From: an uncultured Candidatus Poseidoniales archaeon
Lineage (GTDB): Archaea > Thermoplasmatota > Poseidoniia > Poseidoniales > Thalassarchaeaceae
Reading direction: 5' to 3'
DNA length: 64,000 nt
NCBI GenBank assembly: GCA_964003245.1
Contig: CAXFIU010000002.1
Coordinates: 7,177 to 71,176 of the forward strand
This document shows positions 48,070 through 59,969 of the stretch, piece by piece. Made by a program: the position numbers and the translations under genes. The notes beneath the pieces are model-generated. The model searched no databases. It was given only the letters and a program-made list of their open reading frames with translations, and was not told the DNA's origin. The first letter of the stretch is position 1; every line of letters starts with the position of its first letter.

Positions 48070-49650
48070 CTATAAGTCCTCTGGTATGTAAAATAAGTCA
48101 ACGCTTCCTGTACCTAAGGCAACAGGTTGTCCGACAATAATATTTTCAGTGACACCTCTTAATTCATCTCTCTCACCGATTATTCCAGCTCTAAGAAGAT
48201 GAGTTACTGTTACTTCGAAAGCAGACCTTGCAAGTATACTGTGTTTAGTACCGCTAACTCCATGACGTCCAATAGCACGTACTTCACCCTCACTAGTCAT
48301 TACGTCTGAAACCATCAATAAATGTCTAACATCAACATCGAGACCTGCGCCTTCTAGTGTCAGAAGCATTTCATTAATTATTGCTTGACGTGCTGCTTCA
48401 ATTCCAAGATAGTCATGAATTTCAGTGATATTGTTTGTATAAGTTCTAGATCTGTCTACGCCAGCATATTCACTGACCTTAGATAGATTAGAACCGATTG
48501 TTGAGATATAATATTCTCCAGTTTCAGCATTCGGACCTTGTACGTTAGCCCTCATTATATCTGGAAGACCTTTGAGTCGCAATTTCTTAATTTTCTCCTC
48601 TAATTGGAGTAAAGCAGTATATGTTGGTGGATCAGTAGCAAGAGTTGCTAATTCTTCTTCCTTTGCAACACCTGGTATAATCTTCAAAGTTTTTGGCTTA
48701 TCATCGTTATCTGCTTGAACAAACAACCTTAGAGCACGAGATAATTTATCACGAACTTCTGCACCTGTCATTTTCTTAACGCGAAGATTAGCATTATTAA
48801 GTGAAAGAATAATGTGTCTTTGTGTAATATCTACGTCAATATTGGCTATATCACGTGTTGTTGTGGTTTCTAACCCTGCTGCAATCTCCTGCACCAACTT
48901 TTGGTTAGTTCGAAGAGGTTTGCCTTTTGCATTGTTTTCATCAAGATATATTCTCATTGTAGGAGTCTTAGGCACTTTTCTAGCATCTACAATCTCAATA
49001 ATACGTGGAAGCCCCTGTGTAACGTTTACTGTAGCCACACCAGCATAGTGGAATGTTCTCATAGTCATCTGTGTACCAGGTTCACCAATTGACTGAGCTG
49101 TAGTAATTCCAACAGCTTCGTGTGGATCGACTCTAGAACCTTTAAGATGATCATTAGCAGAACTTACTACTTTCTTTGCTTTCGCAGGAGTCAATTTAGT
49201 CTCACCTCTTGCAATTAGAGCATTTACCAAGTCGTTGGTGATTCTTGGAGACATTGATACATTCAATTTGACAGCTGCATCGGTCAATTGTGAATATAAT
49301 TCAGATTCGGAATCAACATCTCTAAGAATCTGAACCATTTTCGATTCTGTATCGTAAGACTGAATAGGTAGAGATGCTCTTTTAGAGCTTCTACTTCTTC
49401 TTGCAGCCTTTCTTCTCAACAATGTTTTGTCGATCCTAGCCGCTGCTCTCTGAGCAGCTTTTGATGAACCAGCCATTACTTCAAATATTTTTGTAGCCGT
49501 ACCTGAATCAGTACCACATATCTGGGCAATTTGAGAGGATGTTAATACCTTAACGTCATCCCATTTCTTATCATCTGCTAACTTATGAGCATATTCCTCT
49601 TCAATTCCTAAGTCCATCAACTTCTTCTTTGTTGCACTCTTTACTACCAT
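48070..49650 (-). CDS. rpoA2: DNA-directed RNA polymerase subunit A'' with ~100-aa N-terminal HhH-like extension
   Basis: Conserved [25 protein letters not shown] and downstream A'' core. N-terminal [27 protein letters not shown]... is homologous to the RpoH N-terminus. Confidence 0.85.
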
Positions 49651-56485: not shown

Positions 56486-57088
56486 TCAAGTACTCTCCAC
56501 AATTAATCGGAATGCAGTACTAGATCCAGCAGACCTACTATATCTGACTATTTTCACAATCCTGTTAGTTAGCCAACCAGCAGGAAGTTCCGAATTATTT
56601 GATTCTTCAACCTCTTTAATAGCTTGAATCGCAGGATCTGTAATTAGAACTTTGGGGAGTAATTCCTTTGCCAATCTAGTGCTTCCATCAAAATCAGTTT
56701 GGAGCATATCCCATGGAGCAAGTTGTGCTTCCTCTTGATCAACAGGAACTAATTCATGATGAGGTACTAAGAAATGATTCAGAACATTGAATCTATCTTC
56801 GCCTTGAGGTATGTCATCATCAAGAATTGATTTTCGAGAAATTGTAATTCTTCCACTTCGGCTCCTCTTCCTTGAGGCCATTTGTTCACGAATTATTCCC
56901 ATGATATTTTCGAGTTCATCATCACCAGTTTCCAAACCTACTTTCTTAGCTACTTGATCGACGGTCATTCTCTTGATTGCATCCATGTTTGCATCGTCTG
57001 CAAGTCTGTGGGCATGTTCTTCCGAGACACCCAGTTCCATTAATCTCTTTTTCGTCGAACTTTTTACTGCCAAATTAAACACCACCAT
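56486..57088 (-). CDS. rpoH: DNA-directed RNA polymerase subunit H (Rpb5 homolog) with ~110-aa N-terminal HhH-like extension
   Basis: C-terminal HFLVPHHELVPVDQEEA...LPKVLITDPAIQ...IVKIVRYSRSAGSSTAFRLIV is the RpoH signature. The N-terminus KSSTKKRLMELGVSEEHAHRLADD...VAKKVGLETGDDELENIM contains two helix-hairpin-helix-like motifs. Confidence 0.8.
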   Translation of the reverse strand: MVVFNLAVKSSTKKRLMELGVSEEHAHRLADDANMDAIKRMTVDQVAKKVGLETGDDELENIMGIIREQMASRKRSRSGRITISRKSILDDDIPQGEDRFNVLNHFLVPHHELVPVDQEEAQLAPWDMLQTDFDGSTRLAKELLPKVLITDPAIQAIKEVEESNNSELPAGWLTNRIVKIVRYSRSAGSSTAFRLIVEST

Positions 57089-57169
57089 CCAACAAAAAAC
57101 ATGGGCTTGCGAGCCAGAAATGGACTTTTAGACTGGAAATATTTGTATTATTTCGAGATGATCCTTAAC

Positions 57170-57320
57170 TATGCCGCAGGCCCATAGCATATGCTGGGCT
57201 GTCCTCGGACTGAGGGGGTATTTATCAATCTGATGGTAGAGGCATGGCTACCACTGGACAGGGGGTGCAGGTTAGGAGTTCCCAATCGGCATGCCTAAAG
57301 CAGGGTGGTCAGACATAAAC
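57170..57320. ncRNA. Candidate structured small RNA in GC-rich intergenic island between divergent rpoH and the methyltransferase-BirA gene
   Basis: ~150 nt of markedly elevated GC within a 245-nt AT-rich intergenic gap. It contains the perfect palindrome AGCATATGCT flanked by GCCC/GGGC, and long-range complementarity GGCATGG...CCAATCGGCATGCC. Strand and class are unknown. Confidence 0.25.
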
Positions 57321-57333
57321 GTTTTGAAAAAAT

Positions 57334-58731
57334 ATGCAAAAAAAGGAGGTCATTTGTATGGATTTAGGTGAAAAAGAAAATCCAATTACAGATGTTCAAG
57401 TAATGGATTTCGAATTGGGAAATGGAGAGATCATATCTCTAGAAATTCCTAAAACTGTTTATCCACCTAGGGAAGATTCAGCGTTGCTAATTGATGTCCT
57501 TAGAGATCTAAAAGGCGATGGTTTGGCAATGGAAATTGGTTGTGGATCGGGAATCATTAGTATCATTATGGCTCTGAATAATTGGGTTGTTGAAGCATGT
57601 GACATTAATCCTTATGCAATCGCTGCGGCAAAGGAAAATTCTGTAAAAGCGTGTGTGAATGGAAAAATTAATTTCAAAGAAGGAGGATTTGGAGATGAAA
57701 ACTTCTCGATACCCAATAATACCAAACTAATATTCTGGAATTTACCATATCTAAATCCACCATCGCCAGGCGAACCGAGACTAGGGTGGATAGAAGAAGC
57801 ATCGATGTCAGATTTGGGAGAGAAAGGCTGGGGTCATCATTTAGTAGATTATTTAGAAGAAAATAAAGAGAATTTAGAACCTGATTTGTTAGTAATTCTA
57901 TTACAAAGAAAATATCCAGAGAGCCCTAGCAGTACCAATTATTGGATAAAGCTTGGATGGTCTCATAGAGTGATAAAATCATTATGGATTCATAATGAAA
58001 AAATAGAAGTCGTAGCATACTGGATGCCAGGGCAAGGAGTTCCTGCAACTATTCTAGAAGAGTGTAACTCAACTATGGATGAGGCAAAAAAATTATCTAA
58101 AAATGGATGGCAGAGAATACGTACTGAAAAACAGATTGAGGGAAGAGGTCGAAGAGATTCAAACTGGTCCTCAGACAATAAAGATCTACTCGCCACATGG
58201 AACATTAGTAAAACAATTTTAGAAACAATTAGACCGGGGATTATACAAACCATAGTTGGTACGAGAATTGCAAAATTATTGCAACAATATAACAAATGGC
58301 CTAACGACATTTATGATAAAAAAGGAAAAAAAATAGGAGGGGTTTTGATAGAGATGGATAATCAAGATGAATGCCTAAGAATCGGAGTTGGAATCAATTA
58401 TTCGAATAAAAAAATCGAGGGAGGAGATGCGGTGGGATGGAGCGAAAAAATGCCTGAAACTTCTAAAATAAGTCTTTTCAACATGATTGATGCGACTTTA
58501 TCTACGTTATTTGAGGAGCACAAATTGTTAGATAATAATTTGGCATCGAATAGTATAAAAACGGAATCTTGGAGAGGAATCTCGAAATTATTATCGAGAG
58601 GATACTCGTTACGAATAAAGGATGAAAAGACGAGAGTTGTTGGCATGAATGATGACGGGGAATTAATCACATTATCTGGAAAACGAGAGAACAATACTGG
58701 GAATCTCGATAAAATATATTGGCTATTTTAG
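57334..58731 (+). CDS. Fusion protein: N-terminal HemK/Mtq2-like SAM-dependent methyltransferase + C-terminal BirA-like biotin-protein ligase catalytic domain
   Basis: MTase motif I EIGCGSGIISIIM and motif IV IFWNLPYL (NPPY-type). The BPL region has IEGRGRRDSNWSS (GRGRxGRxW), KWPNDIY and GGVLIEMD...IGVGIN, matching BirA. Confidence 0.65.
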   Translation: MQKKEVICMDLGEKENPITDVQVMDFELGNGEIISLEIPKTVYPPREDSALLIDVLRDLKGDGLAMEIGCGSGIISIIMALNNWVVEACDINPYAIAAAKENSVKACVNGKINFKEGGFGDENFSIPNNTKLIFWNLPYLNPPSPGEPRLGWIEEASMSDLGEKGWGHHLVDYLEENKENLEPDLLVILLQRKYPESPSSTNYWIKLGWSHRVIKSLWIHNEKIEVVAYWMPGQGVPATILEECNSTMDEAKKLSKNGWQRIRTEKQIEGRGRRDSNWSSDNKDLLATWNISKTILETIRPGIIQTIVGTRIAKLLQQYNKWPNDIYDKKGKKIGGVLIEMDNQDECLRIGVGINYSNKKIEGGDAVGWSEKMPETSKISLFNMIDATLSTLFEEHKLLDNNLASNSIKTESWRGISKLLSRGYSLRIKDEKTRVVGMNDDGELITLSGKRENNTGNLDKIYWLF

Positions 58732-59016
58732 ACCCATCCTTTCACGAACTAATTTTATTTTTCCAGATGAAGTAATTGTCTTAGATTTATTTTGCTGGTT
58801 AATTATATTTTTAGCATCCGTGTAGGATTCTAAAGGAATCTTAAGAATGCCATTAGATACATCGTCTATAATCTTGAAATCAAATAACTTCCAAGAAATA
58901 TTATCTAAAATTTTAGAAAAGAAATCTTCACATTTTTCCCTAGAGTTATATCGAATATCTAAATGGAAACCTATCCATCGATGCTTGCCTCTGGCGGACT
59001 TATTGACTTTAGGCAC
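58723..59016 (-). CDS. RNase P protein subunit Pop5-like
   Basis: ARGKHRWIGFHLDI...GILKIP...SSGKIKLVRERM follows the Pop5 pattern (KxRYIAFxV...GIIRC...GTIKRLKRK). Weak. Confidence 0.4.
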   Translation of the reverse strand: MPKVNKSARGKHRWIGFHLDIRYNSREKCEDFFSKILDNISWKLFDFKIIDDVSNGILKIPLESYTDAKNIINQQNKSKTITSSGKIKLVRERMGLK

Positions 59017-59054: not shown

Positions 59055-59969
59055 TCAAGGATTTCCTAAACCACTAACTACAGCTACTAATCTAATACGT
59101 CCAATCATTTCATCACTAGATCGAGCACCAAGAAGAACTTGGCAATCAGAATCTAGCAATGAAACAAATTCTTCTGTGACTTTATTCAGATGATAAATAG
59201 TCATATCAGGCCCACCTTCAACTTGAATCCAGCAACCTTTGGCGCCATCTACTTCAAGATTAGAAAGAGGAGACTGGAGAGCATTTTTCACTATTTCTGA
59301 TAATGAATTTGTAGAACCAGAACCGACAAGAATAGTGGCTTCGCCCGAATGTTCTACAATGGTTTTGAAATCCATCAAATCGAGATTTATTTTGCCTACC
59401 TTGGCAAGTGTTGAGAGTAGCCCCTCAACCAATTCTTCTATCCAACCTGCACCTTTTTTCCAGTCAAGTTTTCTTTCCTTAGATTGCCAAGACAATCTCT
59501 CAAGACTAACTTTTATACACACATTAGAATTATTATATAATTCGGGAAAATATTCTTCGGCTAATTGGTACCTAATTGGCTGTTCCGCGAAAGGGAAACC
59601 CACTATTGAAACGACCATACACCCTGACTCTCTAGCCAGTCTGGCAAATTCTGATGCTGCACCAGAGCCAACCCCTCCACCTAAACAAGTCAAAACCACT
59701 ACGAGTTCGGCTTTATCTAGCAAAGGCTGTATTTCTTTGACTCCTTCATTTAACCTATGTTTGGCTAACATTGGTAACGCTGCTGCACCTCTTGCTTCCC
59801 CTGAGGCATCGAGATGTAAGCAATGTGCTTCTGGACTTCCATTGAATGTATTTTCGTCAGCATCAATTAGTAAAAGATCGGAAAATCTAGAACATCGTAA
59901 ATGTGATCTTTCGGCCCAAAGAGAACCCAAACCCCCTACGCCAACAATTAACAGAGCGCCTTGATCCAT
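59055..59969 (-). CDS. Divergent, short FtsZ/tubulin-superfamily GTPase
   Basis: LLIVGVGGLGS (FtsZ VIGVGGGG-like) and LTCLGGGVGSGAASEFARLARESGCMVVSIVGFPFAEQ (the GGGTG[ST]G tubulin/FtsZ signature region). Only 304 aa. Confidence 0.5.
   Translation of the reverse strand: MDQGALLIVGVGGLGSLWAERSHLRCSRFSDLLLIDADENTFNGSPEAHCLHLDASGEARGAAALPMLAKHRLNEGVKEIQPLLDKAELVVVLTCLGGGVGSGAASEFARLARESGCMVVSIVGFPFAEQPIRYQLAEEYFPELYNNSNVCIKVSLERLSWQSKERKLDWKKGAGWIEELVEGLLSTLAKVGKINLDLMDFKTIVEHSGEATILVGSGSTNSLSEIVKNALQSPLSNLEVDGAKGCWIQVEGGPDMTIYHLNKVTEEFVSLLDSDCQVLLGARSSDEMIGRIRLVAVVSGLGNP

Follow-up and report, generated by a model that had tools for sequence, protein, structure and literature searches.

Why should one archaeal reading frame encode both a protein methyltransferase and a biotin protein ligase (BPL), and do the two halves of its product act together? 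The question is raised by an open reading frame (ORF) at positions 57,334–58,731 of a 64,000-nucleotide stretch of DNA, referred to here as the window (37% G+C), from contig CAXFIU010000002.1 of an uncultured Candidatus Poseidoniales archaeon. The original prediction described the frame as a fusion of a HemK/Mtq2-type methyltransferase with a BirA-type ligase, considered the combination unusual, and suggested that it couples the modification of a shared target or acts as a moonlighting regulator. We find the same fusion in every Poseidoniales relative retrieved, and the reading that we favour, and consider fairly probable, is that of a bifunctional housekeeping enzyme whose two active sites work independently on different substrates.

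Domain organization of the fusion protein

Both the ORF list and the sequence show that the maximal ORF (57,334–58,731, plus strand, as are all features of the fusion described below) runs through 465 codons without interruption, as predicted; residue numbers are counted from 57,334 throughout. Sequence profiles and fold comparison of an AlphaFold2 (AF2) model bear out the joining of a HemK2/Mtq2-type methyltransferase to a BirA-type BPL, and all of the motifs originally quoted lie where they had been placed, with EIGCGSG at residues 67–73, NLPY at 136–139, GRGRRDSNW at 270–278, KWPNDIY at 321–327, GGVLIE at 335–340 and GVGIN at 351–355. The division into two domains holds, although the border between them, first put at residues ∼190–200 (57,900–57,960), lies instead at residues ∼230–236 (∼58,023–58,040). 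In the AF2 model the methyltransferase closes with a β6-β7 hairpin at W230, and the first BPL strand runs from residue 239.

A search for the same fusion in related genomes, proposed at the outset as a check, succeeded: scanning a single genome for each GTDB species located at least 334 loci that encode a relative of the fusion. The locus, synteny and motif comparisons reported here use the best 80 of these at least 334 loci, and orthologue counts refer to 77 full-length orthologues, each from a different species.

The methyltransferase half

Residues ∼20–230 (57,391–58,023) form a HemK2/Mtq2-type class I S-adenosylmethionine (SAM) methyltransferase domain, as recognized by NCBIfam, Pfam, Foldseek and the AF2 model. 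The NCBIfam model PRK14968 (archaeal putative methyltransferase) matches residues 34–230 with its positions 8–195 of 198 at 4e-23, TIGR00537 (HemK2/MTQ2 family) matches at 2e-16, and Pfam MTS (PF05175) matches residues 49–110 with a score of 26.6, above its gathering score of 23. A PDB search with a profile of 31 family members matched HemK/N6AMT1 chains at about 1e-9, and comparison of the AF2 model with the PDB by Foldseek returned N6AMT1/HEMK2/KMT9 at a TMt (target-normalized TM-score) of 0.70–0.75 (prob 1.0). The nearest standalone relatives of this half are proteins of Asgard archaea to which NCBI gives the name HemK2/MTQ2 family protein methyltransferase, and methyltransferases of Methanosphaera and Aenigmarchaeota.

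The motifs of the domain are strongly conserved. VYPPRED (57,457–57,477; residues 42–48) is the counterpart of the VYxPxEDS/T motif that stands before motif I in Mtq2; residues 42–49 read VYPPREDS, so that the N-terminal VYxPxED(S/T) signature of Mtq2 is complete, alignment A1 shows no variation at V42, Y43, P44, P45 or D48, and VYxP is present in 72 of the 77 genomes. The SAM-binding motif I, EIGCGSG (57,532–57,552), occurs in all 77 full-length orthologues, and in the acidic DINP that follows β2 (residues 90–93) D90, N92 and P93 are at least 95% conserved. Motif IV reads NLPY (57,739–57,750), a variant of the catalytic NPPY, and the pattern N-x-P-Y is found in every orthologue (NLPY in 62, NPPY in six, NIPY and NMPY in four each, and NTPY in one). 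The standalone archaeal Mtq2-like proteins P0227, P0240 and P0262 have VYEPxEDS/T, and in standalone proteins of this kind VYEPxEDS/T is followed by DINP and then NPPY, the arrangement seen in the fusion.

In class I release factors, the glutamine of the GGQ motif is N5-methylated by Mtq2/HemK2 enzymes with the aid of their NPPY pocket, and the archaeal and eukaryotic Mtq2 proteins are Trm112-activated N5-glutamine methyltransferases of aRF1 and eRF1, respectively. The N-terminal half resembles these proteins (HemK2, N6AMT1/KMT9) in having a class I methyltransferase fold of ∼200 residues with an N-terminal hairpin, VYxPxED, motif I, DxNP and N-x-P-Y. We propose that it is a divergent archaeal Mtq2/HemK2, which would bind SAM and N5-methylate the GGQ glutamine of aRF1, a modification demonstrated for the Haloferax Mtq2-Trm112 complex (PMC6144793). 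It is unlike Mtq2 in continuing covalently into a BPL, and in two further respects that weigh against so specific an assignment: most members carry NLPY, the canonical NPPY being limited to six of 77, and the NCBIfam scores fall below the curated equivalog cut-offs (81.8 versus 162 for PRK14968 and 60.0 versus 87 for TIGR00537). Because of these scores, orthology of the N-terminal half to Mtq2 is the best fit to its sequence, short of proof.

The low scores and the atypical motif IV would also be consistent with an active HemK2-fold N-methyltransferase that modifies an acceptor other than aRF1, such as a lysine, a ribosomal protein or the N2 position of an RNA guanine. KMT9 is among the closest fold matches, and KMT9/N6AMT1 methylates a lysine of histone H4 (H4K12); furthermore, a single-sequence search of the PDB gave the aminoglycoside N-methyltransferase GenN as the best match to the SAM-binding part. 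Nonetheless, the match to the archaeal Mtq2 models is full-length, the Mtq2-specific VYxPxED and DxNP are retained, NPPY is kept in six lineages, and the fusion protein contains no RNA-binding domain. We therefore regard a different methyl acceptor as unlikely, and retain aRF1 as the presumed substrate.

The biotin protein ligase half

Residues ∼236–465 (58,039–58,728) constitute a group-I BPL domain, identified by NCBIfam, the PDB profile search and Foldseek. TIGR00121 (birA_ligase) matches residues 241–450 with its positions 5–222 of 235 at 9e-20, Pfam BPL_LplA_LipB (PF03099) matches residues 264–354 with a score of 25.9 (above its gathering score of 21), and the profile of 31 family members matched solved BPLs at 1e-17 to 1e-13. 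The group-I BPLs of Pyrococcus horikoshii (PH0147), Aquifex aeolicus and Methanocaldococcus jannaschii, with the entries 2EJ9 and 2EAY among the matches, were aligned by Foldseek over ∼240–250 columns at a TMt of 0.66–0.75. The match of the AF2 model to the P. horikoshii enzyme (TMt 0.70–0.75) disposes of the concern, raised with the original prediction, that the C-terminal half might have some other fold.

The motifs of this half align residue by residue with 2EJ9 and 2EAY, including S246-T247. The biotin-binding loop GRGRRDSNW (58,141–58,167) aligns to GKGRWGRVW and GRGRLGRKW of solved BPLs; G270, G272 and W278 are at least 95% conserved and the fourth-position arginine is kept in the window, with GRGR as the first four loop residues in 52 of the 77 orthologues and GRGQ, GHGR, GKGR, GRGY or others in the remainder. 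KWPND (58,294–58,308; residues 321–325), which carries the catalytic lysine and aligns to KFPND and KWPND of solved BPLs, is found in 74 orthologues and is replaced by RWPND or HWPND in three. Within the adenylate-site motifs GGVLIE and GVGIN (58,336–58,398), G336, E340, G351, G353 and N355 are at least 95% conserved. The domain ends in an SH3-like C-terminal subdomain (58,600–58,728; residues ∼423–465), for which the evidence is five AF2 strands within residues 425–464, the extension of the TIGR00121 match to profile position 222 of 235, and the superposition of the whole chain on 235-residue BPLs. No biotinyl domain was recognizable in the 64-kb window by motif scan.

BPLs fall into classes according to their N-terminus, which may be absent, a winged-helix repressor domain or a long eukaryotic extension. 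The C-terminal half of the fusion is like the group-I enzymes (PH0147 and those of M. jannaschii and A. aeolicus) in having catalytic and SH3-like domains, GRGR...W, KWPND, GGxLxE and GxGxN, and in having no DNA-binding domain; neither Pfam nor NCBIfam found the N-terminal winged helix-turn-helix of class II BirA, and the matches of the BirA repressor models are confined to the catalytic part. It differs from them in being preceded by a catalytically equipped methyltransferase of 230 residues, and in having the loop GRGRRDSNW in place of GRGRxGRxW. The class II BirA proteins (Escherichia coli, Staphylococcus aureus) and class III holocarboxylase synthetase likewise have a homologous BPL core with a module added at the N-terminus, but in the fusion this module is an enzyme, its SAM and substrate motifs intact, rather than a DNA-binding or recognition domain, and there is no sign of a repressor function. 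To our knowledge, an active methyltransferase at the N-terminus is not among the described BPL classes.

Group-I BPLs first adenylate biotin; the carrier lysine of a biotin-dependent carboxylase then receives it. By analogy, the C-terminal half would make biotinoyl-5'-AMP and then biotinylate the carrier lysine of the acyl-CoA carboxylase of this lineage. The TIGR00121 score of 71.3, against a cut-off of 83.1, weighs against a close assignment here too, and both halves are divergent, since every NCBIfam score falls under its curated equivalog cut-off. In a few relatives (L054, L063 and L079, and also L043–L053) the BPL motifs are altered, with RWPND or HWPND and GRGQ, GRGY or GRGH, while the methyltransferase motifs are intact, and in these lineages the ligase may have a weaker activity or another role.

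Presumed substrates in the lineage

A published core-genome table for Marine Group II (MGII; PMC6336850, supplement file 12) is consistent with the existence of both presumed substrates in the lineage. Its paired fractions, which we read as MGIIa and MGIIb on account of the sequence in which they are given and of genome counts that agree, are 0.96 and 0.95 for accC, 0.93 and 0.98 for pccB, 0.91 and 0.85 for ETF1 (aRF1), and 0.79 and 0.88 for birA. In the table birA is scattered over many gene clusters, which is expected because the family is fast-evolving, and the strings hemK, N6AMT1, prmC and Trm112 do not occur. This fits the table's birA being the fusion, its methyltransferase label having been masked by annotation with one KEGG orthology term per protein. 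A point on the other side is that a separate Mtq2, BPL or Trm112 may be encoded elsewhere in Poseidoniales genomes, and the silence of a core table is no proof of absence.

Distribution, synteny and reality of the fusion

A word-indexed protein search with the fusion gave 714 significant matches. The 120 matches listed are 400–515 residues long, cover at least 86% of the query with identities down to 38%, and are nearly all annotated with both domains. The best 80 loci come from genomes titled almost all Poseidoniales, Thalassarchaeaceae, Poseidoniaceae or, generically, Euryarchaeota or Methanobacteriota archaeon, both families being represented, and the closest relatives of the window are metagenome-assembled genomes (MAGs) labelled Euryarchaeota archaeon UBA439, Candidatus Thalassarchaeum and Candidatus Poseidoniales. 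These relatives identify the source of the window as an MGII archaeon, probably a member of the Thalassarchaeaceae. Two bins with bacterial names are taken to be mislabelled because the gene order in both is the same archaeal one. This order is common to all 80 loci as far as each contig reaches, and consists of rpoA1-rpoB-rpoH (minus strand), the fusion gene (plus), a gene for a 97-residue protein (minus), an FtsZ-like gene (minus), a gene for a tetratricopeptide repeat protein (minus) and three plus-strand genes.

An HMMER search of 1.84 billion cluster representatives found 79 proteins at E ≤ 1e-30, of which ∼60 are full-length fusions and the rest fragments. Under ∼166 bits the list falls to 100 bits or less, where single-domain BPLs (∼240–260 residues) and Mtq2-like proteins (∼190–220 residues) appear. 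The fusion was found in every Poseidoniales relative retrieved and no case was found outside the order, so the description of it as unusual stands for other organisms and fails within the order itself. On present evidence, the sequences indicate that the architecture is a synapomorphy of Poseidoniales, and the fusion probably goes back to a single event in the order's ancestor, with vertical inheritance thereafter.

The distribution also bears on the simplest alternative, foreseen with the original prediction, that a frameshift or a chimeric assembly merged two adjacent genes. The same open frame is uninterrupted in 77 of the 80 species-level genomes, which derive from many projects and include single-amplified genomes and long-read MAGs, and it recurs in hundreds of protein clusters. 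Because the fusion is seen in hundreds of independent genomes, frameshift or misassembly is for practical purposes excluded as its source, and we give this explanation a negligible probability. The sole hint in its favour is L081 (protein P0194, positions 54–686), a metagenome contig of 694 nt with an in-frame TAA at the domain border (..CLW, stop, PWP), in the place where the family has a lysine after W230 (W-K-P-G); the contig ends 8 nt further on. Either L081 represents a split gene or pseudogene, or a sequencing error produced the stop, fission and error being indistinguishable in such a sequence.

Presence of the fusion in every retrieved relative, together with its rigidity (see below), is what would be seen if the two halves shared one target or complex, or if a ligand of one half (SAM, S-adenosylhomocysteine, biotin or biotinoyl-AMP) regulated the activity of the other, as the proposals of a shared target and of moonlighting regulation imply. 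It is also a general principle that functionally linked proteins are often fused (PMC11237513). We found, however, no shared substrate, no linked conserved neighbour and no second fusion. Among the top 150 of 52,019 HMMER matches there is no other, independent combination of the two families, those with multi-stretch matches being a KsgA+Mtq2 fusion, a double BPL and a repeat protein. The conserved neighbours encode RNA polymerase, a tRNA and a small basic protein rather than biotin enzymes or release factors. No methyltransferase gene was found beside the closest standalone BPLs (P0210 and P0231), and no BPL gene beside the standalone Mtq2 P0240; the neighbours at these loci, judged by eye from their translations, are an aminotransferase-like gene, a nadC-like/coaX-like pair and a GTPase gene. 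Our literature search gave no biochemical tie between GGQ methylation and biotinylation. We consider functional coupling of the halves highly improbable, and regard the shared-target and moonlighting proposals as speculative.

The origin of the fusion from an operon of adjacent Mtq2 and BPL genes was also considered and set aside, no such adjacency being present at the P0210, P0231 and P0240 loci.

Conservation and selection

Among the 77 orthologues, all from one order, the mean pairwise identity is 43% in the methyltransferase half and 31% in the BPL half, and the latter value marks the family as fast-evolving, a further difference from the group-I BPLs. Measured against L001, the nearest relative of the window, dN/dS is 0.115 for the methyltransferase half and 0.094 for the BPL half, with dS at an unsaturated 0.57–0.66. 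Because dN/dS is ∼0.1 in each, both halves are maintained by purifying selection, which is somewhat stricter on the methyltransferase.

The fusion and the gene for the 97-residue protein are the fastest-evolving of the neighbourhood, with 87–88% amino acid identity to L001 versus 96–99% for the flanking genes. At the nucleotide level the identity to L001 is 84–89% across 57,358–59,016 versus 92–96% in the flanks. Recent recombination was considered as the reason for this faster divergence and set aside, the dip in identity to L001 being modest and mostly non-synonymous.

Predicted structure and the domain junction

The AF2 model, built from the family alignment, has a mean pLDDT of 87 and a pTM of 0.88, and forms a single rigid two-domain body. 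There is no flexible linker, since the inter-domain segment is short (∼8 residues) and has a pLDDT above 90. The pLDDT is below 50 only in the N-terminal tail (residues 1–16), with other dips in the loop after NLPY (residues 141–160; 72 and 64) and in the biotin-binding loop (residues 271–280; 69). The low value of the biotin-binding loop is fitting, as this loop is disordered in apo BPL structures.

Trm112 is a small protein partner of Mtq2 in eukaryotes and many archaea; it binds at β3 of the class I methyltransferase sheet, which has the strand order 3-2-1-4-5-7-6. The model raises the question of whether the BPL half, besides or instead of its role as a ligase, stabilizes or activates the Mtq2 half and so replaces Trm112. 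Strict retention of the fusion throughout the order and a linker-less, confidently modelled interface could mean that the halves are more interdependent than a pair of independent activities would be, and this weighs against the reading that we favour. So does the drift of the BPL catalytic motifs beside invariant methyltransferase motifs, as might be expected if the BPL were in part structural; the domain is never lost in the clades where its motifs drift, and the methyltransferase half is the better conserved of the two. Trm112 is, moreover, absent from some archaeal orders, in which its partner methyltransferases are proposed to act alone (PMC6144793), and its name does not appear in the MGII core table (PMC6336850). 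Most genomes, however, have intact BPL motifs, and the BPL half is itself under purifying selection. In addition, the BPL follows β7, which from class I topology, rather than from the model, would place it at the sheet edge opposite the β3 to which Trm112 binds. Replacement of Trm112 by the BPL half is in our view distinctly unlikely.

A stronger proposition is that the fusion is obligate and that methylation and biotinylation are mechanistically linked, either with the BPL as a Trm112 substitute or with the N-terminal half methylating a component of the biotin system; this we judge to be quite improbable. In its second form, the NLPY-bearing half would methylate a lysine or an amide of the biotin carboxyl carrier or carboxylase, which if true would imply cross-talk between two marks, and the fusion would define a fourth architectural class of BPL. 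Returning to the bifunctional housekeeping enzyme, its two active sites would work independently on their separate substrates, and its retention as a rigid two-domain protein would chiefly bring co-expression and mutual stabilization of the folds. A mechanistically neutral fusion of this kind is plausible because, in a survey of archaeal fusions, Ca. Poseidoniia reportedly ranked with the lineages that show the strongest enrichment in high-confidence fusions (PMC11237513).

Comparison with other fusions

Both families have been joined to other partners. A PycA-BirA fusion is known in Methanocella (PMC11237513), and our search of cluster representatives recovered P0226, a protein of 476 residues in which a KsgA/Dim1 rRNA adenine dimethylase (residues 21–253) is followed by an Mtq2-like domain (residues ∼283–471) with VYVPSDDT and NPPY. 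The Mtq2-BPL fusion is like these two in showing that BPL and Mtq2 are both prone to fuse with other housekeeping enzymes. It is unlike them in its partners, as PycA-BirA combines an enzyme with its own modifier and KsgA-Mtq2 combines two translation-related methyltransferases, whereas Mtq2-BPL has no obvious pathway logic.

We did not find a description of the Mtq2-BPL fusion in literature searches or in the supplements of three papers. Automated pipelines call it 'biotin-(acetyl-CoA carboxylase) ligase/methylase of polypeptide subunit release factors'; since these pipelines name both halves and the papers searched are silent, the fusion is visible in databases yet, as far as we found, undiscussed. 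It would be the only recognizable birA-type gene of the lineage, and possibly its only Mtq2. If the halves are independent, the fusion is mainly a warning to annotators, in that pipelines with one label per protein conceal one of the functions (the MGII core table has birA and no release-factor methyltransferase). If they are interdependent, it would represent a natural route to Mtq2 activity without Trm112, and would be the first BPL to carry an active enzyme as its N-terminal extension. The two-enzyme body, which is rigid and has no linker, also makes a compact candidate for structural studies.

Translation start and upstream region

The fusion coding sequence probably begins at the second ATG, at 57,358, which corresponds to M9 of the maximal ORF and gives a protein of 457 residues plus the stop codon (57,358–58,731). 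The start is placed here because most homologues in the protein search are 457 residues long and begin at the equivalent of M9, because the upstream ATG in L001 meets an in-frame TAA (the conserved ATG being in a different frame), and because GGAGG at 57,345–57,349 lies 8 nt 5' of this ATG. The ATG at 57,334 was accordingly rejected on the homologue lengths and the TAA of L001. We also rejected the idea of a conserved internal start codon where the two domains meet, M231 being peculiar to this window and the family consensus being W-K/R-P-G.

Candidate expression signals occupy 57,315–57,349, and comprise ATAAACGTTT (57,315–57,324) together with the GGAGG. They were recognized from an intergenic alignment (A2), the intergenic sequences of 70 loci and the sequence of the window. 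In alignment A2 a block ATAAA(C/G)GTTT, to which ATAAACGTTT belongs, is invariant ∼25–45 nt before the start codon. This block may be a promoter element of the fusion gene, with the GGAGG as a putative Shine-Dalgarno sequence.

The 245-nt spacer upstream of the fusion is G+C-rich (0.45–0.6). In most relatives a minus-strand tRNA-Lys(UUU) gene lies between rpoH and the fusion (L009 9693–9768, L012 9787–9862 and L064 9632–9706), although none was detected in the spacer of the window (57,089–57,357) or of its close relatives L001 and L004. In the window an AT-rich stretch replaces the body of the tRNA, and the first ∼7 nt (CAGGCCC) remain together with an adjoining conserved GC-rich block at ∼57,185–57,330, CAGGCCCATAGCATATGCTGGGCT..CGGAC.GAGGGGG. 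A riboswitch or non-coding RNA in this 5' intergenic region was considered and rejected, as there is no Rfam match and the conserved block adjoins the tRNA-Lys gene in relatives.

Neighbouring genes

On its 3' side the fusion gene is met by a convergent gene of 97 codons (58,723–59,016, minus strand) that overlaps the fusion stop by 9 nt. Its basic product is kept beside the fusion wherever the contig reaches, evolves about as fast, and has the motifs GKxRWxG near the N-terminus and SGKIxLVRERxGL at the C-terminus. These motifs recall RNase P Pop5, a resemblance unsupported by Pfam or by a PDB profile search.

On the 5' side lies a divergent rpoH-like gene (56,486–57,088, minus strand), which heads the rpoB/rpoA cluster. 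Its product is an RpoH/Rpb5-like protein of 200 residues, with the Rpb5_C domain only at residues 100–196, and it shares an N-terminal module of ∼50 residues (50% identity, E = 3e-14) with a 526-residue protein encoded downstream of rpoA1 (48,070–49,650, minus strand), which is probably RpoA''. Such sharing of an extra module by two RNA polymerase subunits is unusual.

Beyond the 97-codon gene is a gene for a short and divergent FtsZ/tubulin-family protein of 304 residues (59,055–59,969, minus strand; Pfam Tubulin 1.7e-14, FtsZ_C 8e-16), which nearly every locus of sufficient length has kept in this downstream position.

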